A DNA stretch of 62,632 nt, filler included, from Dugesia japonica (lineage: Eukaryota): NCBI GenBank assembly GCA_001938525.1. It is 6 parts of 6 records of this genome, joined end to end, with 100 filler letters (N's around TTAATTAATTAA, not from the genome) between each part and the next. Parts side by side here need not be neighbours in the genome. Positions count along the whole stretch, not along the records: positions 9,834 to 18,254 come from MQRL01286129.1; 5 more parts are not named here. One strand, written 5' to 3'. The notes under the pieces were generated by a model. It worked only from the letters and a program-made list of their open reading frames with translations. It was not told the DNA's origin and did no database searches. Made by a program: the position numbers and the translations under genes. Positions 455 through 32,913 of this stretch are shown one piece after another. Every line of letters begins with the position of its first letter. The stretch's first letter is position 1.

Positions 455-1069
455 ATGGAAAGATTAAGAAATGACGCAGTCTATAAAATTGTAGGACCTA
501 GTGGCAGTGGGTAAACATTGTTTGTATATCAATTATTGAAATCAAAGTTATTTAAGTCTAAATTTGAAAACATATACTGGTATAGGGGTGCAGATGAGAA
601 GCATGGATTGACAAAATTTGAATTTTGTAATATTAAAATGAAAATTATAAATGGTTTTGATTCTAATTGGAGCAAAAGATTAAGACCAGGTGATGTTATT
701 GTTGTTGATGATCTGTATCAGGAGGCAAACAAAGAAAAGGATTTCAATAGTTTATTCACAAAAATATCGAGACATCGTAATGTAACTGTGATATTTATTA
801 CACAAAATCTATTTCATCAAAGAGGTAGTCATAGAACTTGTAATTTAAACGTGCAATATTTGGTTTTATTCAAAAATCCTAGAGATCAGTCTGTTGTTGA
901 TTTTCTAGCAAGACAAGCATGCCCAAATAAAAGACAGTTTTTTATTGAATCATTTCATGATGCCACAGACAAATTACGTGGATATCTATTTCTTGACTTT
1001 ACACAACAATGTCCCGATGATTATAGGGTGAGAACAGATATATTCAATCCAAATGGTATCACAATATAA
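455..1069 (+). pseudogene. Polinton A32/FtsK-like DNA packaging ATPase
   Basis: Walker A GPSGSG*T (Lys replaced by TAA at 512-514), Walker B VIVVDDL, FTKISRHRNVTVIFITQNLF, VLFKNPRD. Confidence 0.93.
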
Positions 1070-1334
1070 AAACAAAATAGGTAATTTTTCCTAATATTTC
1101 GAAGAATGACAAAATTAAAGAAATTTTGTAGTTGATCAAGTAACTAATGGCGTTGTAAAACGTCAAAAAATATCTTTAGAGAAGAAAAAGTATGGAAAAA
1201 AGAAGAAACAATCGCATAAGGAACATCATGTAAATAAGAAGCAACGAGTAAATAAAAGAAATATGTTTAAAAAACTTGCAAAAAGAAGGGGAAAGAAGCT
1301 GCGAATAATGAACAGAAAAGCAATTATAAACAAA

Positions 1335-1680
1335 TAAATGGTATCTATTATTTTAATAAATAATGATGAAATTACAAAGAAGCGATCCATTATTTACAGC
1401 TTTGATTAAATCATCAAAACCTTTTAGAATGAGAATTTAACAATCATTCCCACCATATGTTATAGATTATTTACTTGAAATTATTATAAATATTGTTCGT
1501 GGTAATTTAGATTTGAGTGCAACCAAAATGAAAACATTGAAGAAACCTAAAAAAACTTTATTAACTCTTGTAAACTCAAAAAAGAGAAAATCAATGAGAC
1601 GAGTAATGAACAATCGAGGTACTGGTTTTATAGCAGCATTGCTATCAATTGCATTAGCTGCATTAGGCTTAACTCATTTC
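1335..1680 (+). pseudogene. Small basic Polinton protein (core/virion-associated), disrupted
   Basis: LLEIIINIVRGN...KKRKSMRRVMNNRGTGFIAALLSIAL resembles the short Polinton ORF that ends in a GGF-hydrophobic motif. Confidence 0.55.
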
Positions 1681-1909
1681 AAATAAACAATAGTTGAAAT
1701 ATAACAATAACCTNNNNNNNNNNNNNNNNNNNNNNNNNNNNNNNNNNNNNNNNNNNNNNNNNNNNNNNNNNNNNNNNNNNNNNNNNNNNNNNNNNNNNNN
1801 NNNNNNNNNNNNNNNNNNNNNNNNNNNNNNNNNNNNNNNNNNNNNNNNNNNNNNNNNNNNNNNNNNNNNNNNNNNNNNNNNNNNNNNNNNNNNNNNNNNN
1901 NNNNNNNNA

Positions 1910-2100
1910 ACATGTCAATGTTGAAAAGATTTCCAACAAGACCATATAAAGCTTATGGTATTGATGATTTATGGTAAATGTATCTATTTGAAATGATTAA
2001 TAAATTTTACAAGTATATTTTTATCTTTTATCGTTGTATTCATTAGATTTACAAGAGCTGTTCTATTTTAATCAAAGGGACCTGAAAGAATAAACAATGT
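1910..2100 (+). pseudogene. Polinton retroviral-like integrase, N-terminal fragment
   Basis: KRFPTRPYKAYGIDDLW*M...YKYI matches the R.F.RR....GIDD.WQ.DL motif of Polinton integrases. Confidence 0.75.
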
Positions 2101-2170
2101 AAAATGATATAAATACCAAAACCAATTTGAATAGTAGCAACACAAATAAAATAACAAGACAACAATTTTG

Positions 2171-3270
2171 ATGAAATCAAATAATTTCTATACTCTTTTA
2201 CCTAGTAATAGTAGTCCACTAGTTCATCNAAATAATACTGCTAGTAATTACATCGTTGAGCTTCGAAATCCAATTTATATGGATGATAGATGGGAAGTTG
2301 CCATGATGGATTTCACCTTTGTATATTCAACTATGCCGATTTACAGTCAATCTAGGATTGATTATGAATTATTTACAATAATTGAGAAAGAAATAATATT
2401 TGATGTTAACAATAAAGAAAACATAGTTCTTTTAACGTTTAATTTTCAAGACAAATATAAAAATAACAAAGAAACCGTTATACAATTAACGGAAGAAAAT
2501 GTTTTAGTCTTTACTAGTGATATTACATACCACAGTTTAGTATTTGAAAATCAGTAAACTATAAAAAGATTTTCATATTTTAGTGGTGAATTTGTAAGTA
2601 AGGAGAATACATTAACTTTTGATTCTAGTAAACATTTTGGAGATAAAACATTTTTTCTTGGCTTTCAACACTTTAAAAACGATGACTGCATTGAAAAAAT
2701 AATTAAATATTTTTATCCGATTGAAACTAAACATTCTTTTCAATTCGAATATGAATTGTAAATACAGGATTTAAATCAACTAAATGACTNTTTTAAGAAA
2801 CACCTTCCAAAGTTATTTAAAACATTTTCATTAAAACAAGATGAGATATTTGAATTTATATTAGCAAGTAAAACTAAAAGTGTTAAATTCGATAAAATCT
2901 TAACAAAAACATTAGGATTAAAGGAATCGCAATATACTCAAATACACTTTAATGATAAACAACTACTATATAAAAGTAATAAGAAACCTAGAATATTAAA
3001 GTGTTATAATGAAATGTTCATCTATTGTAGTATTATTGAACCTATAATTGTTGGAGATGTTAATGTTCCCTTATTGAAAGCAGTATAGATAGAAGAACAT
3101 GATAATGATGAGGTAATACAAATAATTGTTGATAATCCGATGTATTTACCTATTTCTTCGTCATATATAAACAATATAGAAATCAATATACGTGATGATA
3201 GTCAACTTTGTTAGTCAACTTTGCTGAAGATTCAAAAACACATTTAACGTTACATTTTAGAAAAATTAAT
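2171..3270 (+). pseudogene. Polinton minor capsid (penton) protein
   Basis: N-terminal FYTLLPSNSS..NTASNY...WEVAM and C-terminal MFIYCSIIEPIIVGDVNVPLL...NPMYLPI...IEINIRDD...LTLHFRK; internal stops. Confidence 0.88.
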
Positions 3271-3271
3271 A

Positions 3272-4020
3272 ATGAACCCTGATATTGTATCAATGTATAG
3301 TACTAGTCAAGCAGGTGGAGAATTACCTTACTTTCTGGGAAAACAATATGGATCTTGTTGGTTACGAACAATAGGGAGATTTGCTTTGCCTATTCTTAAA
3401 CGTATTTATTCTTTTGGTATGAAAACAGCTCCGGGTGTACTAGCTAATGATGGCAAAATACTACCCAAATTGAAATCTAATGCATTAACTGAGCTTGGAA
3501 ATGTAGTTTCTTCCTTACCTAGTGNNNNNNNNNNNNNNNNNNNNNNNNTAGCAGGTATATTACCGCAAAGTATAACTAATACAATACCATCTGAAATAAC
3601 TAATATGCTATCAAATCAAGTCCAAAGACTACCAAATATTAGGAAACGAAAGAAATCTCATTTATCACGTATAAACAAACGAATGAGAGGGCATGGAACA
3701 ATATTTGNNNNNNNNNNNNNNNNNNNNNNNNNNNNNNNNNNNNNNNNNNNNNNNNNNTGGCAAAATACTACCCAAATTGAAATCTAATGCATTAACTGAG
3801 CTTGGAAATGTAGTTTCTTCCTTACCTAGTGAAGTTACCAGTATGATTTCAAAAATAGCAGGTATATTACCGCAAAGTATAACTAATACAATACCATCTG
3901 AAATAACTAATATGCTATCAAATCAAGTCCAAAGACTACCAAATATTAGGAAACGAAAGAAATCTCATTTATCACGTATAAACAAACGAATGAGAGGGCA
4001 TGGAACAATATTTGAAAAAT
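3272..4020 (+). pseudogene. Polinton core/protein VI-like ORF (partly duplicated by assembly)
   Basis: QAGGELPYFLGKQYGSCWLRTIGRFALPILKRI motif, basic C-terminus; lies immediately before the major capsid gene. Confidence 0.65.
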
Positions 4021-4225
4021 TTGCGGTAAAACTGAATTATGTATTTTTGATCGACCATCTCCCAAAGCTGTAATTGAAAATGGTACATTCGAAGATGTTT
4101 TTCCTATGAATTCAATTTCTGAATCACAAAGTGATTTAGAGTTTTTTATAAATGGATCTCAAACAGAATATTTGGATTTGAATGATTCTTTATTGTATAT
4201 TAAATTAAAAGTTGTTGATAAAAAG
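4020..4225 (+). pseudogene. Polinton major capsid protein (double jelly-roll), N-terminal fragment
   Basis: LCIFDRPS...VIENGTFEDVFPMNSISESQSDLEFFINGSQTEYLDLNDSLLYIKLKVV, then abrupt truncation. Confidence 0.85.
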
Positions 4226-5159
4226 CTTTCAAAAATATCAAGACTTCGCTCTTCCACAGTCGAAAATCTTACAAAACAACACTTCCCCGATCAAAAAACC
4301 AAAAAACTAACCAAAAATGCATCAAAAACTCAAAAATGATATTACTTTCATTAAATTCATCAAATTAAGCAATATACAGCATTTTTACCAACGTAATTAT
4401 TTCAAATATTTATGACGTCATAACGACCCGACAGAAAAATTTCAAGTAAATCTTAAAAAATCTGATAATTAATTTTCTTTCCACATATACAAACTTCCAC
4501 CTCACAAAAAAATTTTTTAACATACTTATACTACTTACAAAATAAACCAATCAAAAAGTAGTCTTAAAATAAAAAATCAAAGCACATTCGACAACCATCA
4601 TATTCACCATCACATTACTTCTCCAACCAGCCAACAAACAACAAATTCCATCAACAACATAAAAAACTACAACTAAAACAAAAATCACCCACGATAACTC
4701 ATATTTTGTGCCCGTGTGCCACTACCCATCCAAAGTCATAAGTTCTTTAGACAATATATAGACCAAATTTTTGTCCGACAAGAAATAAATCTTCAAAATA
4801 CAAAAAAATTATCACCAAGATCTCCAGCTACTCCTCGTTTTTTTCAGTCTTTTACACACACACACACAAACACAACTTGGCCTACTTTTTCAAAAGCACA
4901 TTAACAACCAAACCTAAAAAAAATTTAAATTTAAAAATACACACACACCTTCAGGATAAAAAAAATAATTTGATCTGATCAAAGATTTTTTGATCCCAAA
5001 AATCTTAGAAAAAAAATCGATCACAAAAATCATGGTTAAAAAAACGCAGCTTAAGCCTAATGTGTTTCCGAGGGGACTCGATAACTGCTTAAAATGAATT
5101 GTGCCCGAATTTTGGCTCATTGCCAAATTGTGCCCGTGTGCCACTATCTACCTACTTTC

Positions 5160-9833: not shown

Positions 9834-10720
9834 AAATATAAAATAATTTTACTCGAAATAATTCCAAAATTGAAACAAAAGCAATCAATGATATACGAAT
9901 CTGAATGCAAAATCAGTATAAAAAGGGAAAAAAATTATGCGAAACTTACCCTTATCAGTCTCGTCATCTCGACACAACAATCCACGTTTGTTAGCATCGA
10001 TTTAATTAGAAACGAGTTATAGAGAATCTCTGAAAATCAAAAACAATTCAAATTTCCAGAAAAACTTGCAACAAATTTTTCAATTCAATTACGACCAATC
10101 AGATCGATAACTAAGATTTAAATTTTCCTAAAGAACACATCTTACAAATTTCACAGTCTAACTTACATCCTGCTATCGACATTCAAATTAGAAAACGACA
10201 TCGGCCACTCAAAGGACATCTAGCGGCTCCATTATCCCAGATAATCTCAGATCAAAAATCGTAATTGCCATACGATGACCAGGTGAAACCAGGAGATAAT
10301 AGTCAAATTTTAAATCACAGCTATCCGGGTGAAGCAGGAAATCAGCGGTCATTCAATCAAATCGTTGCTCTACTAGGCTACTATAAATAGTCTACTATTC
10401 AGAACAGAAAAAGAAGGGGAGAAATATTAATTTTCCAATTATTTGTGATTCTCGCATCGAATTAATCAGTTCATTTCATTATCACAGCGAACGTCAATTA
10501 TCCAATATCCAATCAACTCAAGATCGCGGCCAGTTTTAATGGACAACTGGCTACAACGAAACATTTGTCCATAGCATGTCAAGCCCTTCAAGAGAAAATA
10601 GAAATGCTCGAATTTGAAATTTACAAAGAGTTAATGAGTATATATGATTATGAGTATATTATTAGCATAGTTACCTTGTATTGTTTACATAGGAACTATG
10701 TATTATAGGGTCTATGAGTG

Positions 10721-13700
10721 TGTTGGGTTGCTAGGCTTTTGATTTTGTTTTAATATTATTTATATCGATTTTTATTATGAATCTCTCGATAACCATTGTT
10801 CCTTCTCTTAGATATCATTTCTGTCTGGGGGATGATACCTAGCAACCACAGAAATTTGCGTTGCTCTTTCTAGCAACACGACCCCCCTTTTACCGGATTC
10901 AGCAAGACTCTGCTGTATCCCATCTTGTTTGTTCAATTTCTGTTTTATCCGGCTCTCAACTTATTGCTGTTATTAGTTGTTATTAATTATCAATTCCCTC
11001 TTCAATTGTAACAATTTATAAAATGCTTTATTTCCAAACACAACTATTTATTCGTTAATGTTAATGATTTCTTTATCTTTACTGGTTTCCTTGGCTGGCT
11101 TTGACACCTAGGTAAGTGTGCGAACCGTTGCTATCAGAACACTTTCTCGATCTGCGTATTCCTTAATAATATCAGTCATTGCTCAAAATGACTACGCTTG
11201 TTCCTTCAATTTGCCAACTTTACTTCTGAGTTGTGCATTCTGATGTTGCAATTCTATGATCTCATTCTTTAACTTCTTCTATATTGAGCACCATTTTGCT
11301 CTGATATCTGCCACTGAAATGTCAGTTAGTTTCTTTGCCTTGGACACTGAAATTATTGATAAGTAAATTTCTATAGCTTTAATTATCTTCACATAATCAT
11401 ATCATTAAATTTAAAATTATTAAGAAAATTCATTATTGTTTACGACATCAGCTTTACTTTATAAATCATTTTTCCATGTTTAACACTCTCAATTAGTGAT
11501 TTACTGAACAAGTGTTAATTTGAAAGAAGAAATTTCATGAGAAAAATTATATTGACTTTTAACACAAGATTAGACACCGGTCACATGGACATCAAATGTA
11601 TCGACTAATGGTAATAATATTCGTTGTAGCCAGGTTTCGATTTTCTTTGTTACGCGCCCGGACAATTTTGCATATTCTTCCGCCTCTGTTTGTACTGTTT
11701 GTATCGCAATAATTGGGTGCTGTGTCGATCTTGAGAGTTCCGTTTTGCGAATTTGGAGTGCCACTAACTCCTTCTCCCGTTGTTACTGTCCGGTAGTCAG
11801 TTCTGCAATTCACTGTTCCTGTTGGTCGACTCTGAGTTGAAGTTGGTCGATTCGAACCAGTTGATCCACGCGTTGTTCTCTCTGTCGCAGTATGGCTGTT
11901 TGTAGCAACTTTATCTCCTACTCCTTTGAGCGTATTCATTCCTGCGTGATCCACCATGGATCTATGTCCGTTCCATATGCACCAATAGAGTCCCATAAAT
12001 TTGGCATCGTGTGAGCTATTTCCGTCTGGAATAAGCATTCTTCCAGCTTTAATAAATCCATGACCACCGTATGATTAATCGCTTTAGACTTGCTAGATAT
12101 CAGCAATAATTTGCATGTATCAAATTTTAGAATTCAGAACACTAAGAAGGTTTAATAATGTAATTGTAATTTAATTATATTTTAAAAGGAACTAAATGTT
12201 ACTCCCGACCAATCTACGATCACTCGTCATTGTAGATAGTGTTGGATTTTCTTTATCAATAATTCATTTGTATAATCAATTCATATTCTCTTCATAAAAT
12301 CTTTGTTGAACTACATTTTGAGAGATCCATCTCCCTCCGAATGACGAATGATCCATCGGCCAGCTTCATTATCATTATCTAGTAACCATAAGAATATTGT
12401 TCCATTATCTATCAATAATCATTTGCAATAAAAACACTAATCAAAATTAATCGGATGAGTTAATATTTTCATAAACATTTACAATTTTAATTATACAAAC
12501 AAAATAACATAGAAGTTAATCAAAGATAGGATTCAACTACCAACTCTTAGTAACATCTTTTCAGTTTAATTTGCATTTTTTTATTAAATGAATCATCATC
12601 AACCTCATCAATATAGACATCTCATCTCTCTATCAGTTATCAACATCTATTTCATAATTTAACATCTATTTCATAATTTGACTTCTATTTGCTAATCACT
12701 CAATGATATCTCTCGTAACACATTACATCTGTTATAAACATTAACATCTCATAACATCTTTCGTCTTTCATAAACAGTAACACCTTATAAGTATCAACAT
12801 ATTATCATGGGTAGATAATCTCGTGGATATCTGAATGATGACGATCATCATTACCAACAAAGCTAAGTAATGCTGATTCATTATCTCAGTCTTCCGATGC
12901 ACCGTTTCAATTTAATAATTATTAAATAAAATAAAAATAATTACTTCTACTTCTAGATATCTTTTCCTTTTTAAATGTGCTAATATAATCAATTTATAAC
13001 TTTTAACAATAAGTTAATAAGTGAATTAATTTATGAATTTTTCGAGATGATTTAAGTGATAATTCGATTTTTTTATACTAAACTTTTAGCATCAATTTTT
13101 GACAGGTGTAGGCACCCACTTCAACTTTTTCTAAAATTCATTGAATCGTGCGGTGCTCACTTGCAGATTTGCTTACGATACCTAAATTTGGACATGATTT
13201 TATTTTCATATTAGTTACCGTATTTTTTCTATCATTCCATATGATTACCGGTGCTCAATCAGCATCATAGATTTGTATTATTATCATGTATATTGCTGGG
13301 TGCTCACCCGACACAGATTGTTTAGTTGTGAATTGCTCAGAGTGTGTTTAGTGCTTGCCAAATACACAGTATCATTTATTGCTACATTAAATGTACGGTG
13401 CTCACCCGATACATAATTTCTATTAGGAATTGATCTGTTCCAACGTGCAAGGCTCCAATGAAATCTGTGTTCATTGAACCAGCACAAATCAAAAATATTT
13501 TTTAATAATATTTTTGACTGAAAATAATAATTTTTTTTCTTATTATTAAATATATAAGTAAGGATAAATACATTAATACATATAAATAATTTAATATCAT
13601 TTTTAAATTTTAATTTAACTTTTCATTTTCTTTCATAATATCTAACTTTATTCCAAAATTCAAATTCTTTCGTCATAAATAATAATATTTATTCAATAAT

Positions 13701-14875
13701 AATAAATTTAATAATATTTATCGTAAAATTATAATAATCTTAGATAGTTTGTCTCTATATTATACATAGAGATTTTTATGTGAATGAAACAAAATCCTAA
13801 CTTAACTTTTTATTATCTTTCATTAAATATAATTCTAGTTTCTTCTTCATAATTAATAATATTTAACTAAAAATAATAATAATATTACAGTCTATTCATT
13901 AAAATACCTTACTATAATAATTAAAATTTTCCCAACGGCCTAATAATAATTTCTTTAATGTTTTTTACCTATAATAATATCGATCTATTTCATATTTCTT
14001 TTCTATAATAATTCCAATTAATTCGACGAAAATCTTTTATTGAACTATTTTTGTTTTAATCTTACTTTCTTACATTAATTACTTTATTATATTCTAAATA
14101 TATATTTATACTTTTATAACATAAATATAATTATAAATAATATTATAACGCACATTTTGATTTCGATTTCGTTCATTATTCCTTCTTACCATTTCGTGAC
14201 ATAGTTCATATATTTAATTCGAATTTTTTTATTTCTTGAGCCATATTTATATTTATTTTGAGTTTTTGTGCTTTAATTTGTTGATTATTATTTCTTCGAT
14301 CCTTTTATCATTTCTCGATTAATTTATTTTCTTCGTTTAATATTTCTTGTATAAAGTATTCATCCATTAATTTATCGAATTATTATTCTTTTTATTTCAT
14401 ATCTTCATTTATTGTTTAATATTATTCTTTTATCTCCGAATTTACCAGTTGAGCATTCTTTTTGGTTCATCATCTTCTTAAGCACTATTGGATTTCAATT
14501 ATTAATTTATTCTTTTCTTATATTTTAATTTGATAATTACTGGTTCTTGAATTTATTTAATTCTTCCATAATAATTAGATCTTAACTTTCACAGCATTTT
14601 CGAGCTTTTGATTTACTTTTATGATCAATGTTTATCTGTTTCCTTTTATCCTGATTATTATTTTCTATTCAATTCTCTTAATTAATTTAATTTAATTTTC
14701 ATTTCATTTATCGATTCATTAAAGCCATTATTTTATTTTATTCTTTATTATCTTTTTTCGCTTTTCTATTTCCTTTATTACTTCATTTATGTTTGAACAC
14801 CATTGTCTCTTCCCTTTACTAGTTTGTTTTTTGTTTGAATATTTATTTTAATAACTGGCCTGTTTCAGCCCAACA
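10721..14875 (-). mobile_element. Giant solo LTR (~4.15 kb) with internal coding segments
   Basis: Ends TGTTGGG...CCCAACA, 4-bp TSD AGTG (10717-10720 and 14876-14879), interrupts a minisatellite that continues on both sides; termini match copies at 30763 and 35196. Confidence 0.82.
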
Positions 14876-15360
14876 AGTGTATATGGCTTATGAGTATATA
14901 GAGTTTATGAGTATATTATTTGCATAGTTACCTTGTATTATTTACATAGCAACCATGTATTATAGGGTTTATGAGTATGTGTATATAACTTAAATTTTCT
15001 GTATAAATATCTTATAAGTCTATATAAAAACTTATAAGTGAATATGGTTATGATTGTAAGGGTTTATGATAGTATAGGTTTATGAGTGTATATGGTTTAT
15101 GAGTGTATTATTTACATAGTTAACTTGTATTATTTACATGGCAAAGGTGTATATAACTAAAATTACTGAATAAAAACCTTATGAATAGGATATTATGAAT
15201 ATTATGAATATAGGATTTACGAATGCATTATTTGTATAGTTAACTATTATTATTTACATAGCAAAAGTGTAATATATGGTTTATGAGGGTATTATTTGCA
15301 TAGTAACCCTGTAACATAGAGTTTTTAAGTAATAAAGGGTTTATGAGTGTTATACGTTTG
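14876..15360. repeat. Minisatellite (GGTTTATGAGT...TATTATTTGCATAGTTA type); its other part is at 10635-10720
   Basis: Direct tandem repeats on both sides of the solo-LTR insertion. Confidence 0.8.
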
Positions 15361-15725
15361 TAAATAAAATTTAAAATGTCTGGAAATTATTGTCTGGAAA
15401 GTTGTTATATAAAATCAATATAATTAAAATTTGAATTTAAATGTTATTGATATGTGAATAATTTAATTAATTACGATGCAATTTAGAATGTCCAAAATCT
15501 AGGATTATTTTGATATATTTTTAAAATAACTATAAAATTATATTCATGTAAAATCACAAGATATAAACTCATGATATAAAAACATATGAACACATTAGTC
15601 TCTAATAAACCAATATTTTGAAAAACAAATTTAAATAAAATTTATTTTCAATTGCAAAGATCAAAACGATATTTTTCTAAATTTTATTTATAACGTTTTC
15701 TGAGCGTATACTTTGTTCCTAATCT

Positions 15726-17390
15726 TTATCTGTTGTTTTTGTATATTTTAACGTTTCTTTTCCTTTTTGGGTCCTTATGTTTTATTAAACACTGCTCGCA
15801 ATCTGGCAATCGTGAAAGTGCATCAGCATTAATATGTTCACGAATTTTTCTAAATTCTACGATCATATAAAAAATTTCCAGTTCAGCTTTCCATATGCAG
15901 TATTGTGACGTATTTGGGCTACCCCAATTAAGCATCCATTTTAATGCTTGATGATCTGTTTGCACAACAAATTGTGATCCCATTAAATAGTACTTAAACT
16001 TATGGACAAACACATATATTGCCAGAAGCTCTTTTCTTGTGATGCAGTACTGTTTCTGACTTTATGTTAGTGTTTTCGATGCATAGTATAATACTCGTTC
16101 CTTGCCATCTTGTACTTGAAAAAGTACAGCACCAATTGCGTTGTGAGAAGCATCTGTATCCAAGATATATTTTCCATCCTTTGTTGGCAAAGCTATCATT
16201 GCTGGTTCTGTCAACCGTTTACGTAGCTTGTAAAAATATTCTTAATTTTCATCTGTCCACTGAAATTTGTTTTCTTTCATTAGCATCAAACTGAGAGGTT
16301 TTGATAAATTTGCATAATTCTTTATGAATCGATTATTATAATTACAAAACCCTAAAAATGTTTGAAGTTCTTTTCGACATTGAGGAATCTCACATTTTTG
16401 GATTGCCATTATCTTATCAGGATCTGTTGCGATTCCATTTTTAGTTATTATATGCCCTGGATATTGTATTTTGTCCTGTACAAATTTACATTTATTTGGT
16501 GCTAATTAAAGTCCAGCTTCTCTTATTCTTCCTAATATTTGATCTAGTCTTTCATTATGTTTTTCTACAGTTTTACCGAATATTAAAACATCGTCCAAAT
16601 ATATTACGCCCTTTTTCCAATTTTCATTTCGCAATACAATATTCATAAGCCGCTGAAATGTTGCTGGTGCTGAGCATAATCCAAACGGCATTCTAGTAAA
16701 TTCGTATTTTCCAAACTTTGTGCCTAATGCTGTTTTTCCATGATCTTTTTTAACTATCGGCACTTGGTGATATCCACTTGAAAGGTCTAGAGTTGAAAAA
16801 TAGTTAGCTCCAGCAATACTGTCAAATATTTCTTCTGATGATGGTATTGGAAAGATTGGTCGGTTTGTTTTAGCATTCAATGTCCTGTAGTCAATACACA
16901 TACGGTTATCACCGTTTTTCTTTTTTACCACTACAATTAGAAAGCTTTATGGAGAAGTCCTCGGCTTTGCAACACCAAAATCTATCAAATTTTTTACCAT
17001 ATTTTTTACTTTATTTTCGAGTCCTTTTGGTATTCTTTGTGGCTTGAAAGCAATTGATATGCTATCAGTTGTTTCTATTTGATGTTCAATCATATCAGTT
17101 TTACCCACATCTATCTTATATCTACTAAATACATCTTTATTCCTATCAAGAATTGACAATGTTTTGATCACATCGTAGTAATTGTTTGTAACTTTCATAT
17201 CATTTTTAATTTTCTGCAGTATATTTTCTGTAATTTCTTTCTCTGTTCTTTGCTTTTCAGAGGACAATTGTCTAAGTGATACTTTTTCAAACACTTTTTC
17301 ATTTTTATTACACTCTTCTACATATCCGAGTGTAGTTCCAGTGTCTAAAGTTTTACATCCGCCTTCTAACATATATATTCTTACCCACAA
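15726..17390 (-). mobile_element. Ty3/Gypsy pol fragment (RT and RNase H), disrupted
   Basis: VKKKNGDNRMCIDYRTLN, LDLSSGYHQV, RMPFGLCSAPATFQR, YLDDVLI, TDHQALKW, NADALSR. Confidence 0.95.
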
Positions 17391-17879
17391 GATACAGAAT
17401 AACCATATACCTCTTTTATTATAATTATTTTTATTTCACCAAATGTCTTTATGACAAACAGTCCGAATGACCATATGGTTATGACTAACTGTCCTATGGC
17501 CAAATGCTCTATGACCAGAAGTCCTAGAACCTCAATTTCTACTTGATCATATTGAGAATAATTTTGAATTATAAAAAAAAGATTTATTTTAAGAAAACTA
17601 ATGTTTATATTCTTGATATGATACATACATACTTGTTATTTGTTAGTTTTTATTAATCTTTTCTTGTTTTAAAAGAAATGACTGGTTATTATTCATTTTA
17701 ATTTATTTGATTTATAAAAATAAGACATGCTTTTCAAAATAAAATCATTTAAAAAATGTCTAACTTTGAAAATTTAATAATGAGCTACTTAGATATGGAA
17801 TGTTATTATATTAACTAAGGTCGAGATAAAATAAAACAAAGTCCTAATTTCAAAACTATAACGCATTACAGAGACATCT

Positions 17880-18254
17880 TCGGATCACCAGAAAAAAATG
17901 ATTTGTCAACAGCATACTTGCAGTGGTCAAGTATGATTTAATTCGTAATGATCGTAAACGTCCACACAAATATAAGAATTATTTAAATGAGTTGGTCTAT
18001 GATGAGCAGAAAATGCCGATGAAGCTCATCAATATCCCGGAATTTGAGCGGGAAAACGATTTATCAATAACTGTTTTCAAATATAAAGAAGTACTTGATG
18101 GAGAAGAAGACAGTAAAATTGTATCTAAAAATCCATATGTTGATGTGATTTTCCGAACAAAAAACCCACATGAACGTCCCGTAAATTTGTTGGTGCTGGA
18201 AAATGATGAAGATTATCATTAAACGGGTGTGGTAAATTTGGAAAGATTATTGAA
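17880..18254 (+). pseudogene. Polinton protein-primed DNA polymerase B, N-terminal region fragment
   Basis: SILA...R...Y...P....IPEFEREN.LSITVF...VNLL.LE....H pattern typical of the pre-exonuclease region of Polinton pPolB. Confidence 0.7.
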
Positions 18255-18354
18255 NNNNNNNNNNNNNNNNNNNNNNNNNNNNNNNNNNNNNNNNNNNNTT
18301 AATTAATTAANNNNNNNNNNNNNNNNNNNNNNNNNNNNNNNNNNNNNNNNNNNN
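18255..18354. other. Artificial contig linker
   Basis: N44-TTAATTAATTAA-N44. Confidence 0.97.
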
Positions 18355-18599
18355 TAGACCTGATTTTATATAAAGACGGACCCCCTAGAAATAATTACCT
18401 AAATCGTCTAAATAAAAAGGGTAGAACCTCAACACATATAATGTGACAAATTTATAAAATTCGTGTTTTAAATTTCTTATTGAAATAAATAAAATTATTC
18501 AAACAAATGTCAATCTGAATTAAAATAAAAAATAGATTATTAAAAATTAGCTACCCTACAAAATAAATTTCCGACCAAATAAATTAAGCATTTTTCATT

Positions 18600-19060
18600 G
18601 ATCTAGTTGAATCAGTTCATTTTTGGGCGGTTTGGTTGAAACTTACCTCAAGAATAGTCAATATGGGCCAGTTTTGGACAATTTGGTCAGTTACTTACTC
18701 ACTTTTGGCAATGTTGGTTATTTTCTTACAAGGTTTGGACAATGTTGGTCAATTATTTGGTCACAATTGTAATATTTGGATAATTTGGTTGAGTTATTTC
18801 CTCGGGAATAGTTAATTTGGTTCAGTTTTGAATGATATTGTCAATTATTTACTCAGTGCTCAGACTTTGGTTGACACTGCTCCAATTTTGGACGATTCGG
18901 TCAATTATTTCCTCAGCATGGATAAACTTAGTCAATTATTTATTCATGGTAATTGGTTTTGGGTGGTTTTTGGAAAAGGATCAATTATTTGCGCACAAGG
19001 TTAATATTAGACGAATTCGGCCAATTCATAATCTATATTGAAATATTTGGTTACAAAAGT
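18600..19060. repeat. Degenerate ~40-bp tandem repeat; an inverted relative lies at 9250-9424
   Basis: Recurring TTTTGGACAAT(T/G)TTGGTCAATTATTT(C/A)CTC. Confidence 0.6.
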
Positions 19061-20029
19061 CTTTAAGATATAGTCAAACCTATTTGGAAAATTAAATCCA
19101 TTAAAAGCTTTATTGAGTAAATATTATTATTAATAAATAATTTGTCTTATTATTTTGTAACTTTTTATTTACCTTTTTATAAATCAAAACAAGTTTATTT
19201 AACAGTACAGTTTATTTAATTGAATCCCATACTATTCGATGTTCCAATGATTGTTCTACATGACATATGGCAACTGAAATTATAAAATTAAAAATAGATT
19301 ATTAAGGCAACAAAGATTACTTAGGTATTTGGATCTCTTTCCATGTTGTATTGATGTTGTTGTCTTAATGCTTTCAGTTTTATATTCATTTGAGTTTGAT
19401 TTATTGATTCAGCGCTTGAATAACTTAAATCATCATTAAATTCTTTGATTAATGCTTCTTTTGCGTTCTCATAAGACTCATTTACAACCGCTGACAATTT
19501 GAGAATATTATATTTAACTAAATTATCTATTAGAAATGTCATTAAAAATTTTTGGAATAATAGTTCTTCCACTCATTTTCATGAAAAATATTGTAAATGC
19601 ATCATCATCTTCAACAACATCTTGATTACATAGTTCTATTTCGTTCAACATGTCCTTCTGTTAAGATTACATCATCCATTTTTGAAAAGTGTACAATGCT
19701 TACAATCACTTAATTTAAACAATAATAGTTAAATGATTAATTAAGTTAATTAATTCTTTTAATATTTTATTAACAATTCATTGATTCCAATTGAAAATAA
19801 ATGAACACANATTGGATCATATTTTGAAATTCTTAATCTTGGGAATATTTTAGGTTCATATACACATTTATCTAATTTGACTGATACACATTTGGATAAT
19901 TCATATTATTAGGTAATTTTAGAAATTCGTAAATTTTTTAATATTTTTAAAATTTAATAAGGTTTTTATTAAAACCAATGTTTATTAGCTTAAATTTTTA
20001 AATGTAAATTTGAAAATTTAATTGTAAAG

Positions 20030-21648
20030 ATTCTTACAATAAAGCTCTTGAAATGTGGAAAATTACTGGATAATAACTTATTTGACTTAATAATGGTTTA
20101 TTTAAAACTTCATGTTTTCTTTTGACTGACTTCTTCCAGCAATTTAGACAAAAATCTTTAGCTCACAATAGACTTGAACCGCTAAACTTCTTTAGAATTC
20201 CAGGCATGTCATTGGCTTTTGCCTTGATGACTTTAATCGATCCAATTCAGTTATTGACTGACAATGACTTGTATACCTTCTTTGAGAGTGGTATTGGAGA
20301 AGACCTTATCCTTGTTAACAAGCATTATGTGTTTTATGATGAATAATTTAAATATTAATATATATAAATTAATAATATAAATTAATATAAATAATTTATA
20401 TGATTAAGCTTTAAGTCAAAATCTTCCTTATAAGAATTTTGAATGAATTTATTCTGGTTTTGATAACTTATTGAATGATTGTTTGATTTTTGACTTAGAT
20501 TCTTTATCTTATGGATATACTTTTGAGGTTAATATAAAAATTCCTACTAAATTAGATAATTATTTATCTGATCTTCTTGTTGCTGCTGAACACCAAAGTC
20601 CACTTGGATCTAAGGTAAAAAAGTTGTTGCTAATACATTATCCTAAGAATAATTATATTGTTGATTGGAGATTGTTGCTAATACAATTACAGTTAGGTGT
20701 TAAAATTAATAAAGTTCATAGAGCTGTTAAGTTTAGACAGGACAATATTTTTAAGAAATATATTGATGATGCTACCCAATTAAGAGAACAAAGTAACTCA
20801 GATCTCGATAAAAATTATTATAAATTCTTGAATAATAGTTTTATGGAAAATCTGTAGAAAATCTATTGATTCGTATGAATCTTAGACTTTGCAATTCGGC
20901 TAAAAAGCTTGTAACTTATACGCTGAAACCAGGCTTAAAGAAATCCATTAAGATAGATGATCACTTGATTACTGTCTGGTTGAGTAAGGAATTGGTTTGT
21001 TTAGATAGACCTAATTACACTGGTCAAATAGTTTTTAATCTTTCTATATTAAGGATGTACCAATTACAGTACATTGAACTTGAGAAATATAGGAAGGAAG
21101 AGAATTGTAAGATCAATATTAATGCTGGTGATACCGAAAGCTTCTTCCTTGAAGTTAAAGATATCAAATTAGAGAAATTGTTAGGCTTAATGGTTCGTAA
21201 TAATCTGCTTGATACTTTAAATTATTCTAAAACACATCCTCTGTATAGTGATAAGTTGAATTCAGTTATAGGAAAGTTTAAAGATGAAAATAAGGGTAAT
21301 AAGTATAAGAAATGGTTGTTCTTGAGACTTAAGTGTTACAGTTTTCTTAGCGATAACAAGTCAATGAAAACTAAAGGTGCAACACTGAAAGATAGTGGCA
21401 TTAACTATAAGTCATATCTTGATTGTTACAACAACAATAAAAAGGTCTCAGTACAACAATTTAGGATAGGAACTAAAAATCATCAGTTGTTTAATTTTAA
21501 CGATTCAAAAATAGCACTATCTAAAACTGACAACAAAAAAGTATGGCTAGAAAAGAATAAAAGTCTACCATACGGCCATTGTAGTATTCCGACCAATAAT
21601 AATGAAGTAACAACCAATGTAAAGGTAAAAACTTTATTTGTTAATTGA
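20030..21648 (+). pseudogene. Polinton pPolB catalytic domain, inactivated
   Basis: YLKL.V..LTD.FQQFR, PGMS, F.ESGI, YYKFLNNS, catalytic DTDS changed to DTES, IGKFKDE, LR.KCYS, SLPYGH. Confidence 0.92.
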
Positions 21649-21819: not shown

Positions 21820-22590
21820 TTAATTTAGAAATGTTCGATGGAATGCGGCAGATTGATACACAAAGGCAGTATTTTGTAAGGTAGTATGATGTACTAGAAG
21901 GTTGAATTTGGCAGCATCCATGGTTTTTTCTGTGAATGTATTCTCATACTGAAGCTTATCTAATATTTTAATGTAGAACATAAAATGTATTCTTTCAGCC
22001 TTCAATATTTTTATTAACTGATGTTTTTGTTTTTTCAAAAACTGACCATAACTGACTGTTCTAATGTCATTATTAATTTGTTTCATTGTTATGGAGTCAT
22101 GCTGGGTGGAGATGTCTTGGAATTCACTGACAGGATCATAAAAATCGGGAAAGTCTTTCTGTTCGAGAAAAGGGGTGAGATGGGAAAAGCGCGTACTATT
22201 GTTATACGGCATTTCAACCATGAGGGTTAGTGAGACAATTTGTCCAACAGAAGGTTCTTTAACATAACAGAAATTTGCACGACGTAATTTGGTATCATAA
22301 ATTTTTTGGGATCTACAAGAAGGACAAGGTACATTATCTGAGTTGGTTATATTAAAATATTCAGTTATACAAGCAAAACAAAAGAAGTGCTCACATGGTG
22401 TGATACGGGGTAAAATAGACTGGTCATAACATAAAGGACATATAGGTTTGTCTGTGATAAGTAACGTACCTAGTGCAATGTCTGGCCAACAAAAATTGTA
22501 AGGGTTTGTTAAATTCCAGTGTTTCTCATATAAAGTTATACGTGCTGTCTGCAATATAAACAATTGTTGTGATTGATAACTGGAATTCAT
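21820..22590 (-). CDS. C3HC4 RING finger protein, RNF10/Mag2-like, intronless
   Basis: CPLC...PRITPCEHFFCFACITEYF...CPSC followed by VGQIVSLTLM and C-terminal FVYQSA.....FLN, parallel to RNF10 (as recalled). Confidence 0.75.
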   Translation of the reverse strand: MNSSYQSQQLFILQTARITLYEKHWNLTNPYNFCWPDIALGTLLITDKPICPLCYDQSILPRITPCEHFFCFACITEYFNITNSDNVPCPSCRSQKIYDTKLRRANFCYVKEPSVGQIVSLTLMVEMPYNNSTRFSHLTPFLEQKDFPDFYDPVSEFQDISTQHDSITMKQINNDIRTVSYGQFLKKQKHQLIKILKAERIHFMFYIKILDKLQYENTFTEKTMDAAKFNLLVHHTTLQNTAFVYQSAAFHRTFLN

Positions 22591-22672
22591 TCTAAAATAT
22601 ATAATATTAATGATAGGGCTAGAGAGAGATACTATAATAACAATAGATAAATATATATAGTTCTTTTTTATG

Positions 22673-23734
22673 TTACTCATTGTTAACTGAAAGTGTAAGT
22701 GTNNNNNCCTTTTCCGTGACAGCGATGGTGTTAAGCAAAACATTTTCAACAACAAATTTTAATGTCTTCTTACTATCCTCTTTAATGGTTGTTAATCTAA
22801 TGCGTTTCTTTCCAAACTGTAATTGCATATCTTTACCTGATATTCTTTTCAAAGTGTTTTTTGCATTGCTAATATTTCCATCCAACTTATCTATTTTGAG
22901 GGCTCTATTCAAATTGATTGTGCCCCTACCAGGTTTGTATATATCAATTTGTGGTCCAGAACCGAGGTCATCACTGTCGCTATCCGTATGATACGGCATC
23001 ACCTCGAAATCTCCTCTTACTTGATCCAACCTAAGATCTTCCACTTCCTCACCTGACCAGTATTCAGTTTCACTTTCAGACACCTTTTGTTCTCTCTGTG
23101 ACATTGTCCGTTCTGGAATCTCATCATCCTCAGATGCGTCCATATCTGTTTGTATCTGTTTAGGATTTCTTCGTATCATATCATCAATTAGTGTCTGCTG
23201 CTCACCAGTGTCGTTATGCGGTCTAAGTTCTTCTGGTAAGTCTTCCTCGTTCCACTCTATATCTATGTCATTACTCATATTAGATTGACTATCTGTGCTT
23301 CTATCTGTCTCTTCTCCATTCTCTTCCATATCTGAATCTTGTTCAGAATCTAATATCCATACTACACTATCTGGTTTCTCCTGTTCTCTAGTCATGACTT
23401 CTTGCAATATTGACGCATTATTTTCTATACCTTGCATAACCGGATTATTACCAGGATATATAGAATATTGCCATGGTTGCTGAGTAATTATTTGTTTGTA
23501 TATAATCTTTATGAATGTTATTCGTTTTGCTGTCGATTCCTGCGCTTTTTCTCTCGCTGTTTTCAACATATTTCTGATGACCCTATCTTGTCTTATGGGT
23601 TTGAATACTGCTTCCATAAGTTTGATCAATTTCAACTTCTTTACATTTGGAATATTACAATCATATGCTACCATCGCATTTGCTCCTCTTGCTAATTCCA
23701 ATAACATTATTATAATTGTTATTATTGTACCCAT
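22673..23734 (-). CDS. Signal peptide plus AYDCN glycoprotein stub fused to an acidic low-complexity region
   Basis: TIITIIIMLLELARGANAMVAYDCN matches TTILLLFLIMGRSEAILAYDCN at 54140-54210; the rest of the ectodomain is missing. Confidence 0.65.
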   Translation of the reverse strand: MGTIITIIIMLLELARGANAMVAYDCNIPNVKKLKLIKLMEAVFKPIRQDRVIRNMLKTAREKAQESTAKRITFIKIIYKQIITQQPWQYSIYPGNNPVMQGIENNASILQEVMTREQEKPDSVVWILDSEQDSDMEENGEETDRSTDSQSNMSNDIDIEWNEEDLPEELRPHNDTGEQQTLIDDMIRRNPKQIQTDMDASEDDEIPERTMSQREQKVSESETEYWSGEEVEDLRLDQVRGDFEVMPYHTDSDSDDLGSGPQIDIYKPGRGTINLNRALKIDKLDGNISNAKNTLKRISGKDMQLQFGKKRIRLTTIKEDSKKTLKFVVENVLLNTIAVTEKXXTLTLSVNNE

Positions 23735-24167
23735 TAGTGGTCAATTTGATTTTTTTAGTTTCTTTATTAATAAGTTTCTTTATTTCATCTTCTTGTTCTG
23801 TTTGTTGAATTTTTTGTTTACGATTATTTGTTGGATATAACGTTTCCCAACCTCCTTCTTGTGTGATCCACGCGTTAATCCCTTTATTCCAAAATCGATT
23901 AACTATTCGTTTTACAACCAAAATATTTTTATCCGGTTTCTCAACTAATTGTTCTCGATTCTTAAGTATTATATACGAAATAGCTGTGATTACTTTAATT
24001 TTATTTATTCCTTCTTTCATCATTGTTTTTATCACTTTATAATCATCAATTTCNGGATCTGCTATTATTAATTTGCTCACTTCTTTTATTATGAGTTTCA
24101 TGTCTTCGAATATCATTAATGCTTTATTCTGAGTTATTATGCAGTCATATAGATCAGCATGTACCAA
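23735..24167 (-). CDS. Bcl-2-like domain
   Basis: BH1-like MMKEGINKIKVITAISY and BH2 NAWITQEGGWETL (23844-23870). Confidence 0.72.
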
Positions 24168-24199
24168 TTTAATTAGACTTCTTATAAGTCCTTGATCTG

Positions 24200-25121
24200 A
24201 TCCTGCTTATGCTTGTTCATCATATCTTTGTGATATATTATTCAAATGTTCCGCTTGCACTTTTTCTGGTATTATATCCTCTAATTTTGGTCTACCTCTT
24301 GATCTTTTGTAATCTGATACTTTGTCTTTAAATACTTTCTGTCTTGGCATCTCGCTTCTTACATTATCTGATGTTGATGGTTTTTCATTCCTTGTGGTCG
24401 ATGTTGGTGGCTATTGCTGGCTTGCTCTTTCCTCCTCAGCTTTATTTGCTTGTGCCATCATACTTAAAATTTCTTCCATAGATTGTTGTTGATCATCTGT
24501 TAATACTTGTGGCTTATGTTTCATAAATGTCGCTTTTATGATATTAATCTTACCTGGAATAATTCCATATTCCATCAATGTTTTGTTCTCATTTAGTTCT
24601 GTATTGTAGAACGATAGCTGTATCACATCTTCATTTTGCAACAATACTGGCCAATATCTATTTACTATTTTATATAATTTATTTGTTTTTGTACACGCAT
24701 GTACTGTCAATTCTAATGCTGTCACCGAGCATTCGTTTTTTCCTGCTACCACTTTGATATTTAATGACTCTTGCAACATTTCGTTTCCTTTTACGTATTC
24801 ACTATATTTTTGAAATATCTCATCTATTGTTTCTAGATTTTCTGATATCTCTATTCTGTTTCGACTCTTTGCTAACATGATTATTATTGGTTTAATTTTT
24901 TGAAAATTGATAGGATATTCGTTAACATCTTTCAAATATTGTAACAATCTAAGTTCATTAATTCTTTCTTTTGTTATTTCCAATCTGACATTCTCTATCA
25001 ATATTTCTTGCTTCTTTTCGTCTATTGCATCTAAATCTACTTCTGTTGGTTCACACATATTTATTTCATATTCCTCTCTCTCTTCTTGTCTCTCCATCAT
25101 ACGCTGATAATGTATTTTCAT
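24200..25121 (-). CDS. Ubiquitin-like domain plus AT-hook (one in-frame stop at 24411)
   Basis: IQLSFYNTELNENKTLMEYGIIPG resembles the ubiquitin C-terminal half; KRSRGRPKL at 24282-24308 is in the same frame after the stop. Confidence 0.65.
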
Positions 25122-25219
25122 ATCTTAGAACTCAATTCTCATATTTTTATAAGCTTCATTATCGATTACTTCAATAGCATAAGTTTCTCTTGTTTCTGGG
25201 CTGAATGATACATCTTTCT

Positions 25220-26405
25220 TCAGAATACTTCTAGAATCATTTGGTTTATTTCTACNNNNNNNNNNNNNNNNNNNNNNNNNNNNNNNNNNNNNNNNNNNNN
25301 NNNNNNNNNNNNNNNNNNNNNNNNNNNNNNNNNNNNNNNNNNNNNNNNNNNNNNNNNNNNNNNNNNNNNNNNNNNNNNNNNNNNNNNNNNNNNNNNNNNN
25401 NNNNNNNNNNNNNNNNNNNNNNNNNNNNNNNNNNNNNNNNNNNNNNNNNNNNNNNNNNNNNNNNNNNNNNNNNNNNNNNNNNNNNNNNNNNNNNNNNNNN
25501 NNNNNNNNNNNNNNNNNNNNNNNNNNNNNNNNNNNNNNNNNNNNNNNNNNNNNNNNNNNNNNNNNNNNNNNTTTCTGTTGTAATTGCTATAATTTCTTTG
25601 GTAATAATCCGTTTTAAATTTTACATCCTGCTCCTTTCTACTATCTTGACGATTTTGATATGCTTTCCTCATCTCATTCCATGACGATTCCTCATTGCTT
25701 GCATATATTTCAATTGCATATATTTGTCTGGTTTTATCTTTATGTTTTGTATTTGCCTCAATTTGTCTCGTTTTTCTTGTTAGTTCTTCTAAGTTTTTAT
25801 ACTCTGCTGCAATTAGAGCATCACGAATATATTTATGTGTCCCATTTAGAAATTGAAATTCTATAGTATTATCTCCTTTTCCAAAAGCTTGCTCTGCTAA
25901 CCTTGTTAATTTATATATATATTCGCCCACTATTTCATTTGTTAATTGTGTTCTATCTCTAAAGTTTTGTATACAAATTCTTTCTAATTCACTTGGAACT
26001 ATTATCTTTTCCTCAATTTTGCTATTAGATCATTCCATTTATCAGGTTTGGCATCCAGATTTTTATAACATTTTAATGCNTTTTAATACTGTATTTTAAT
26101 TCTTTTAAATACAGTGGCAATCTTTTAATTAATTCTGCTTCAGTCCATCCATAAGCTGTGGCACAGACCTGCATATGGTCAAAGTATTCATCGGCCTCCT
26201 CAGGTTTCCCTGCATAAAATTGTATTGGTAATATATTTAATGTACCTCGGTGTCCAAATTCACCTCCTACTTGATCATTAATTGGTAAATTTTTAAATGG
26301 CATATTCACAGTATTATTATTTGCTGCAGCCATTTTTTTGATCTCTCTGTTTCTCAAATTATATATTGTATTCTCTTCAATGATTATTCCTTCAGTTTTT
26401 TTCAA
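25220..26405 (-). pseudogene. Gag capsid (Ty3/Gypsy retrotrans_gag type), frameshifted, contains a gap
   Basis: FYAGKPEEADEYFDHMQVCATAYGWTEAELIKRLPLYLK; R.Q...E.VGEYIYKLTRLAEQAF...QFLNG. Confidence 0.85.
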
Positions 26406-26414
26406 CTGGAATGC

Positions 26415-26570
26415 TAATAATTATTTTCTTCGGTATCGTTTCAAACAGTATACTAATCAAACAAATTCTTCGGTATCATTTCAACCGGAATACTAATCAA
26501 ACAAATTCTTCGGTATCATTTCAACCGAAATACTAATCAAACAATTTCGTCGGTTTGGTTTCAACCGATA
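26415..26570. repeat. 40-bp tandem repeat (~4 copies) in the gag leader
   Basis: TTCTTCGGTATCATTTCAACCGGAATACTAATCAAACAAA repeated. Confidence 0.85.
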
Positions 26571-26830
26571 AACTCTGAATCACATTTAACTTTATTACTT
26601 AAAGGGAACTGATTATATATTATCAGAACTTTGACAAGAGATTGCGGTAGGAATTCGATCCAAATCTAATACCAAACTTAAGATAATCAAATTAATCAAC
26701 TTTGATAAGAGATCGTAGTAGGATTTTCTCCAATATCTGATATCAAACTGATCAATACACGGTATATTTTAATAAAGGTTTGAAAACCCCCTTGATTTTA
26801 AAATAATTTTAATGATTTTTATTATTTTGA

Positions 26831-26849
26831 TTCCCGGTTCGCGGCACCA
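26831..26849 (-). promoter_or_regulatory. tRNA primer-binding site (His- or Phe-like)
   Basis: TGGTGCCGCGAACCGGGAA four nt after the LTR end ...CCAACA. Confidence 0.85.
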
Positions 26850-26853
26850 AATT

Positions 26854-27504
26854 TGTTGGATATTTAACTCAACAAAAGTTTATGGTTCGTATTAAAATGG
26901 TTGTAAGATTGTGTATAATTTATCTTTTTAATTATTGTTATGCAATGTATGTAGCTACAAATATTATATAGACGATATTTTTACCAAAAATATAAATAGA
27001 ATTATATATTGTATAATTCCTTGTATAAATTAAATAAGTAATCACATTTAAAATATTTATTAGGGATATATACTTCAACTTATAAGCGATAGTTTATTTA
27101 AAGAAGGAAAGCCACTTAAAGAAAGAGGTTTCCTTAATTAAAAAATGTCTGAAAAATAAACTGACATACGTCAGTATTTATAGTAAAATTTACACTAGGC
27201 CTCATGCATTGACCTAGTGATTGTTATTCAAAATTTTTATTTATAAACATAAAATTTTCCATAAAAAATCAAAATTTTTACTTACAGATAATAATAAAAT
27301 TTTCCATTCAAATAATAATAAAGTCTAATTTACAGATAATAATCAAATAATAATAAACTCCAATTTACAGATAGTAATAAAGTTCAACATAAAATTTTCA
27401 AGTTCAACATATTTGTAAAATAATAAAATAAAATATAATGCCAGCATTGAAATAAAATATAATGTCAGAAAATTTTCAAGTTCAGCATAATAATAAAATA
27501 AAAT
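26854..27504 (-). repeat. 5' LTR (3' part only; cut by contig end)
   Basis: Ends ...TCCAACA just upstream of the PBS; internal short tandem repeats at 27280-27500. Confidence 0.75.
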
Positions 27505-32340: not shown

Positions 32341-32459
32341 CTTTGTTAGAAAATAATCACAAAAGATTGAAAGTTTTCTGCGCTGATTGAATAAGAAAAA
32401 GTATTACTTATGCGCTTTTACGTTTGTGTCTGCTCATTAAGTCAAGGACTACAATCTGA

Positions 32460-32690: not shown

Positions 32691-32913
32691 TGTTATTGGA
32701 AAAGAAACTTATTTTAGGATTGCGTACACGATCATTTGAATCTCGCCTTTTGAGTTTAGTAGGTTCAATACTTTCGTGAAGTGTTTGAAAAAAGTTTTTG
32801 TGACAATATCTTCATTTCGCGGAATTCTAGCTAAGTTATTGACATATTTTATTTTGTTTATTTTAAAAAAAATATTACGTGCTTTATTTTATATTTTCAT
32901 GATTATAAATATA

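Follow-up and report, generated by a model that had tools for sequence, protein, structure and literature searches.

Long terminal repeats (LTRs) are usually regarded as promoters without coding content, and a solo LTR as an inert remnant. Here we have analysed a stretch of 62,632 nucleotides of the planarian Dugesia japonica (NCBI GenBank assembly GCA_001938525.1; six parts of six records joined end to end, referred to as the window), in which an insertion of 4,155 bp, copy A (10721–14875, in the part from MQRL01286129.1, positions 9834–18254), carries on its minus strand the remains of small protein-coding open reading frames (ORFs). We give about an even chance to the whole reading that we prefer, i.e., that copy A is the solo LTR of a Burro-like giant Gypsy element with two broken minus-strand blocks, likely separate small accessory genes and probably antisense to the genomic RNA. 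Among retroviruses, HTLV (human T-cell leukaemia virus) has antisense genes (HBZ), to which the ORFs of copy A can be likened.

The closest described systems are compared here as they appear in the cited excerpts of each source. The giant Gypsy-like elements Burro and GYPSM1 of planarians have a total length of more than 30 kb and an internal part of up to 25 kb (PMC6431247). An LTR of several kb fits the total size of Burro and accessory ORFs are a known habit of these elements, but they are placed in the internal region and not in the LTR (PMC6431247). Burro elements are recognized by their link to a gag-env-pol polyprotein with BCL2, BIR or RING-type extras, and here such bodies are found only as neighbours. 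The sag/naf gene of mouse mammary tumour virus (MMTV) is, like the present case, a protein gene wholly inside an LTR, with its own promoter in U3, the unique 3′ part (PMC9412291), although it is a single sense ORF of a vertebrate retrovirus and copy A has at least two, probably antisense, and no relation in sequence came out positive. In the plant elements Retand and Grande accessory ORFs run opposite to gag-pol, some with coiled-coil (Smc) matches, and have been proposed as regulators; however, they occupy the region from pol to the 3′ LTR, which a solo LTR no longer has, whereas those described here would stay in every solo LTR (PMC11963269). By analogy, the unit of copy A may work most like MMTV sag crossed with the antisense ORFs of Retand. 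The MDG1 group, Metaviridae as well, also has a pair of small accessory ORFs, sORF1 and sORF2, which use a poly(A) site of their own, but they are sense, unspliced, upstream of gag and outside the LTR, and sORF2 is a membrane fusogen, in contrast to the soluble long helix predicted for the main ORF of copy A (PMC11952523). The DNA transposons Ginger1 and Ginger2 resemble copy A in their TG..CA ends, 4-bp duplication and intron-bearing genes, but have long terminal inverted repeats (TIRs) and a DDE transposase, neither of which was found in copy A (PMC2836005). The excerpts of PMC8532177, PMC11410931 and PMC13238120 mention Burro without LTR genes, and the literature searched, with the original Burro description, supplements and Repbase outside its scope, gave no description of genes inside Burro LTRs or of several ORFs wholly inside a Gypsy LTR.

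The ends and target site of copy A

The features that delimit the insertion are the following:

10721–14875, no strand assigned: copy A, likely solo LTR of 4,155 bp, with TG..CA ends, a 4-bp duplication and the satellite restored at the empty site
10717–10720, plus strand: left target-site duplication, AGTG
14876–14879, plus strand: right target-site duplication, AGTG
10721–10730, plus strand: left short inverted repeat, TGTTGGGTTG
14866–14875, plus strand: right short inverted repeat, CAGCCCAACA
13500–14865, plus strand: very AT-rich, T-skewed arm, candidate R-U5 side (T-A skew 0.40 in the last 650 nt)

Copy A is probably a solo LTR. Its termini, TGTTGGG...CCCAACA, form an inverted match that is perfect over 7 bp and holds at 9 of 10 positions over 10 bp, and the left and right repeats fit the two halves of the integrase signal of animal Metaviridae LTRs, TGTTRNR...YNYAACA (PMC3601003). 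The single repeat is flanked by the short AGTG duplication, and the local satellite is restored when copy A is removed and the flanks are joined. An initial annotation made from the sequence alone had proposed TG...CA ends, an inverted repeat of 7–10 bp and the AGTG duplication, all of which are present at 10721 and 14875; its wider claim, that of an LTR-type insertion carrying protein-coding sequence, agrees with the ends and also with the protein-level selection and the Burro-like neighbours described below. Weighing on the other side, no primer-binding site (PBS), polypurine tract (PPT) or internal sequence was seen beside either end of copy A's LTR family, there was no loose end at 10721 or 14875 among those listed, and the collection scans were empty. 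We infer both the LTR identity and the orientation of copy A. The target satellite itself (10500–10720 and 14876–15330) is very abundant in DNA contigs and occurs in poly(A) RNA on both strands.

Conserved blocks on the minus strand

The coding blocks of copy A and of a diverged relative, copy B, are listed below together with two further islands of higher GC upstream of those in copy A:

11570–12092, minus strand: block 2, broken ORF with its first in-frame ATG at 12061 and 163 codons to the stop at 11572; GTDxDPWW followed by a coiled coil; four internal stops
11048–11346, minus strand: block 3, broken coiled-coil ORF behind the acceptor TTTCAG (11347); four internal stops; 29% identity to the copy B block
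11348–11569, minus strand: AT-rich spacer between blocks 2 and 3, taken initially for an intron; GC 0.21, not conserved with copy B
35196–38492, no strand assigned: copy B, diverged relative that keeps its left end and is truncated by the gap at 38493
36103–36582, minus strand: block 2 of copy B, 159 codons, ATG directly after the acceptor, two internal stops
35479–35828, minus strand: block 3 of copy B, ATG 2 nt past the acceptor, one internal stop
12190–12420, minus strand: island 1, candidate small ORF or leader exon broken by three stops, the most RNA-covered island
12768–12881, minus strand: island 0, candidate hydrophobic ORF of 37 codons, no Pfam match

The clearest evidence of coding function comes from the comparison of copies A and B. 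For block 2 the protein score was 117, the best of 36 frame pairs, and none of 2000 shuffles reached it (shuffle maximum 65); for block 3 it was 58, reached by 1 of 2000 shuffles. The spacer used as a control was not significant (143 of 2000). The identity at the three codon positions was 0.48, 0.59 and 0.29 over 104 codons of block 2 and 0.61, 0.52 and 0.41 over 71 codons of block 3, figures that rest on a protein-guided alignment and are not a formal dN/dS; in block 2, 19 of the 33 identical residues were encoded by a different codon. Protein-level conservation is combined here with third-position divergence, the pattern of an accessory gene, and blocks 2 and 3 were likely shaped by selection in the past, as judged from the two sequences. 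The conservation of minus-strand peptides between copies announced in the initial annotation holds well beyond chance, with one frame per block. Among the 78 island pairs compared only these two, A2-B2 and A3-B3, were convincing; the pair A3-B2 (0 of 100 shuffles) was rejected as generic coiled coil and A3-C3 (4 of 100), which involves a third relative, copy C, is within chance. A search of the window with profiles of the two blocks gave no third copy.

The frames are broken in both copies, a point that the initial annotation had overlooked. The internal stops of copy A are located at 11938, 11920, 11812 and 11785 in block 2 and at 11281, 11194, 11185 and 11110 in block 3, and those of copy B at 36477 and 36282 in block 2 and at 35589 in block 3. 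The proposal that the gene survives in the solo LTR is not supported: both copies are pseudogenes (8 and 3 internal stops) and no read was 99% alike to copy A among the 82, 105 and 111 reads of three RNA runs, with only 2, 6 and 4 reads that were 95–99% alike. In two other runs, X8 and X12, most of the 24 and 50 reads were satellite. Copy A is dead. Several of the stops are absent from relatives. All 13 X9 RNA reads differ from copy A at 11920 and 11938, all 11 from X11 differ at the stop 12283 of island 1, and at the stop 11281 the difference extends to 2,426 of a DNA depth of 2,581. Within block 2 the summed contig depth, not to be read as a copy number, is highest on the GTDxDPWW motif (4,602 vs. 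94–256 in the other bins), indicating that the motif is common to many diverged elements.

Some other candidates were considered in the same region. A second minus-strand frame over block 2 (11592–12074) is open for 160 codons, 148 of them from an ATG, without Pfam match, and the conserved frame at that place has four stops; as the gene it was rejected, the matching frames of copy B being closed, and it is probably a shadow frame. The terminal block described below was rejected as a fourth exon, its best frame pair being on the plus strand and its conservation being at the level of DNA. Island 1 had no match in copy B (169 of 2000 shuffles). Six of its seven majority DNA differences fall at third codon positions (6 of 11 when the four minority places 12282, 12283, 12285 and 12288 are included), a count in which the frame is one of three and the differences are those listed, a part of all; the same count gave 2 of 5 in block 2 and 0 of 2 in block 3.

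A single match was obtained when a profile of two block 2 peptides was compared with 1.84 billion representatives. This protein, P0002 (171 aa, E 9.5e-5; blastp against copy A, E 7e-14), aligns with block 2 alone, from start to end, including a late GxxTKxxxxW-like stretch, and belongs to a cluster of two members (P0002 and P0003) on contigs of 2 kb. A three-row model of P0002 (mean pLDDT 75) has a short helix and two strands at residues 2–46, followed by one helix of 87 residues (47–133). The predicted product of block 2 would be a small head with a long helix, and we propose on this model that block 2 represents an unnamed protein family with a GTDxxPWW head and a long helix. Other searches were negative. 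In Pfam the five peptides of copies A and B gave no transposase or other family above the cut-off, only sub-threshold coiled-coil matches; the PDB sequence search gave no match and neither did Foldseek in BFVD and PDB at E 0.001. ESM Atlas with P0002 gave a best value of 0.92 to unnamed clusters (recognition 1807), a weak result with nothing specific. The word-based protein searches gave none among 101 candidates and, in 45, only P0002 itself; pattern scans of metagenome and viral contigs found no loci, and of the 175 and 13 pattern matches in locus scans with P0002 none was confirmed.

Orientation, gene structure and rival explanations

Several non-coding features have a bearing on how copy A is read:

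10726–10735, no strand assigned: terminal arm of a long-range pairing, 10-bp perfect complement of 10838–10847 (1 of 2000 shuffles)
10838–10847, no strand assigned: inner pairing arm, inside the conserved terminal block
10817–10927, no strand assigned: non-coding terminal block common to very many diverged elements, 76% DNA identity to 35278–35382
11047–11052, minus strand: AATAAA ending block 3, with a GT-rich stretch behind it; would serve as poly(A) signal for a minus-strand unit
13153–13406, no strand assigned: four GTGCTCA repeats, predicted enhancer/promoter region

The pairing of the left end is also present in copy B, over 11 bp and with one pair changed on both arms, i.e., compensated. 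The fold z-scores were −2.8 and −2.9 on the two strands of copy A and −1.9 and −2.8 in copy B and so do not tell the strand; Rfam gave no matches. The summed contig depth, again not a copy number, reached 141,973 in the bin 10817–10875, vs. 43–905 in most interior bins. Both copies have the context GAATAAATA with its GT-rich tail immediately past block 3 (35468 in copy B), although AATAAA is common on the A-rich strand, with 23 occurrences in copy A. GTGCTCA has 8 of its 11 window occurrences in copies A, B and C, which make up 16% of the window, a motif that was chosen after seeing it.

The RNA reads favour slightly an antisense position of the ORFs, in U3, over the opposite one. Reads on the terminal block have mostly the first mate on the minus strand (20.1, 17.0 and 24.1 vs. 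4.4, 13.6 and 7.8 in the three runs), those on the spacer (11348–11583) have it on the minus strand only and are unspliced reads of one direction, and those on the 5′ part of block 2 and on island 1 have it mostly on the plus strand. With the usual library type these directions indicate that the RNA running through the LTR is of the plus strand and that on the ORFs of the minus strand. Weighing against this, the 3′ part of block 2 (11584–11819) is covered solely by first-mate-minus reads, 11053–11170 has mixed directions, the plus-strand RNA could be host read-through, and the strand data come from one study with three runs of 82–111 reads, library chemistry unstated and all reads from relatives. 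The antisense position, one option of the initial annotation, is weakly supported by the strand bias of these three runs. If the ORFs were instead in sense, U3 would extend from 14875 leftwards and hold them, as U3 of MMTV holds sag, and the conserved left block would be R-U5. R and U5 are usually the most conserved parts of an LTR (PMC3601003), and the conserved block, the pairing and the AATAAA with its GT-rich tail are all at the left end, which fits that opposite orientation. TATA and poly(A) candidates for a U3-R-U5 order are present on both strands of copy A. However, most RNA on the ORF starts has the other direction than that on the terminal block and spacer, working acceptors on the genomic strand would presumably tend to strip the spacers during copying, and the proven U5 side of a neighbouring LTR at 26854 is T-skewed, as the right arm of copy A is on the plus strand, though less (0.10 vs. 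0.40). We regard sense ORFs in a solo LTR as unlikely.

Blocks 2 and 3 had been annotated as one intron-split gene, in which block 2 would be spliced in frame to block 3. The spacers (223 and 274 nt) are indeed AT-rich, with a GC of 0.21–0.22 vs. 0.37–0.44, and not conserved, and a YAG acceptor precedes block 3 at a matching place and in equal phase in both copies. The acceptors annotated as TTTCAG at 11347 and ATTTAG at 35829 are present, but position 36583 reads GTTTAG and not ATTTAG. In AT-rich introns a stop shortly after the donor is common, and a stop at such a place would agree with an intron here. What the copies do not have in common is an in-phase donor: the only one of copy A before the stop, at 11577, is changed in 204 of a depth of 211 in relatives, and copy B has its in-phase GT at 36173, 22 codons before the stop, or at 36098, just after it. 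Furthermore, the V-stop that ends block 2 has a matching position in the two copies, 163 codons from the ATG in copy A and 159 in copy B, P0002 and P0003 end where block 2 ends, and the word-based protein search, a weak one, found no fused longer protein among 6,586 longer candidates. Spliced alignment of RNA reads, the check recommended initially, gave no RNA joint among those listed on 10699–12450 in any of the three runs, whose reads come from relatives mostly <90% alike; all 13 joints listed there are from DNA contigs. On these grounds we hold a single intron-split gene to be improbable, about as much so as sense ORFs, and two separate small genes to be likelier, in copy B with an ATG 0 and 2 nt after its two acceptors. 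Some points weigh against separate genes: copy A has no ATG beside the block 3 acceptor, the absence of any RNA splice joint leaves alternative splicing as unproven as the intron, and P0002 has no known context, while a gene caller would likewise cut an exon at ATG and stop. Two rivals have a much lower probability. A non-autonomous TG-ended DNA transposon of the Ginger type with passenger genes would also have TG..CA ends and a 4-bp duplication, Ginger genes can hold introns (PMC2836005), and the LTR status of copy A is itself deduced; but the TIRs of Ginger1 (40–270 bp) and Ginger2 (50–180 bp) are far longer than the 7–10 bp found here (PMC2836005), the target is not CCGG or CCGT, none of the five peptides of copies A and B has a DDE integrase in Pfam (although a non-autonomous copy need not have one), and in copies B and C the two ends are conserved independently of each other. 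We consider a Ginger-type transposon very unlikely. Least probable of all would be a chance origin of the peptides, or their capture as debris from the host, without a function for the element that selection had kept. The broken state of both copies and the lack of any Pfam, PDB or fold match might suggest it, but the protein likeness persists at a third-position identity of 0.29, the two diverged elements have the blocks in equal order and place, and there is a homolog outside them.

Returning to a solo LTR with antisense accessory genes, which we read as small separate ORFs in a row, a mechanism can be sketched. The element would have inserted into the satellite, and recombination between its LTRs would then have removed the body. 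Leftward transcription would start from a promoter close to the GTGCTCA repeats, the leader would be spliced alternatively to the acceptor before each ORF, and the transcripts would end at the AATAAA at 11052. Antisense splice and poly(A) signals would stay silent on the genomic RNA and so pass reverse transcription unchanged. By analogy we would guess that the product of block 2 formed oligomers and regulated either the expression of the element itself or silencing by the host, and the compensated pairing of the left end may be a replication or integration signal. It is a tentative idea, and rather unlikely in its full form, that the LTR of these giant planarian elements is a self-contained cassette, antisense, alternatively spliced and polyadenylated, with its own promoter and between two and four small proteins unlike any known family, each of the many solo LTRs being born as a working regulatory package independent of gag-pol. 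The kind is already known from retroviral precedents (MMTV sag, antisense genes). If Burro-type LTRs do carry their own selected genes, this would explain their size of 4–5 kb; solo LTRs in planarian genomes could still make element proteins after the body is lost, and their opposite-strand RNA could feed piRNA or double-stranded RNA pathways.

One X2 DNA contig joins 10858 to 12325, skipping 1,466 bp (with 28 letters on the short side), and may represent a relative without blocks 2 and 3.

Related copies and neighbouring elements

Two more features of the window are needed here:

30763–32900, no strand assigned: copy C, third relative, in inverted orientation, with an end, TGTTGGCCTGAAACAG, that agrees with copy A's right end
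26830–26859, minus strand: 5′ LTR end and primer-binding-like site of a neighbouring Burro-like element, with the same terminal hexamer as copy A but of a different family

The gaps of the window, at 9734, 18255, 27505, 38493 and 47158, consist of 44 N, TTAATTAATTAA and 44 N. Copy B and the LTR at 26854 are truncated by them; copy B runs into the gap at 38493, which puts its end at 38492 and any duplication there beyond the reach of comparison. Inward from TGTTGGCCTGAAACAG, copy C has an AT-rich arm as in copy A and then TGAGCAC motifs, its long matches of 60% being low-complexity. A Tc1/mariner-like element with arms of 75 bp (32906 and 34269) interrupts it, and copy B adjoins directly after. 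Plus-strand coding-like islands with acceptor-like sites at 34688–35195, and GC-richer coding-like islands in AT-rich DNA on the minus strand at 39546–39884 and 43500–44120, have no match to blocks 2 or 3; CCAACA occurs near the latter, at 39338 and 39553.

The TGTTGG terminus that the initial annotation had seen in common with the LTR at 26854 does mark the end of an LTR there, and a primer-binding-like site comes next on the minus strand. But the hexamer is common, with 43 occurrences in the window when its complement is counted too (21 and 22), and the comparison of that end with copy A gave only low-complexity matches and no orientation for copy A.

The neighbouring elements show the Burro layout (PMC6431247). 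Their likeness to Burro and GYPSM1 consists of a gag with zinc knuckles, a weak SUMO-like match, a RING, a fusion protein between gag and pol and a dUTPase-like stretch. In Pfam, several of 16 neighbouring ORFs gave zinc knuckles, RING (E 1.6e-7) and, placed between gag and protease, a viral fusion protein (E 4e-33 and 6e-19), together with a dUTPase-like stretch after the protease (E 2e-4) and weak gag and SUMO-like matches. On the minus strand, 21820–27504 is the 5′ part of a Burro-like element, with an LTR end that has a TATA and an initiator-like motif (27182), the primer-binding-like site, the weak gag and SUMO-like matches and the RING ORF. At 23664–24206 there is what we take to be a BCL2-like motif, for which Pfam gave no family. 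We also take 515–4339 and 17902–21648, by eye, to be Polinton/Maverick-like pieces, presumably with packaging ATPase-like, capsid-like and DNA polymerase B-like ORFs. A broken giant Gypsy body occupies the plus strand of 48006–62632, with zinc knuckles, two protease-like stretches, a dUTPase-like stretch and, lying between gag and pol, a fusion protein of the Monjiviricetes type; after its integrase there are ORFs of unknown family (60951–62080) that resemble one another.

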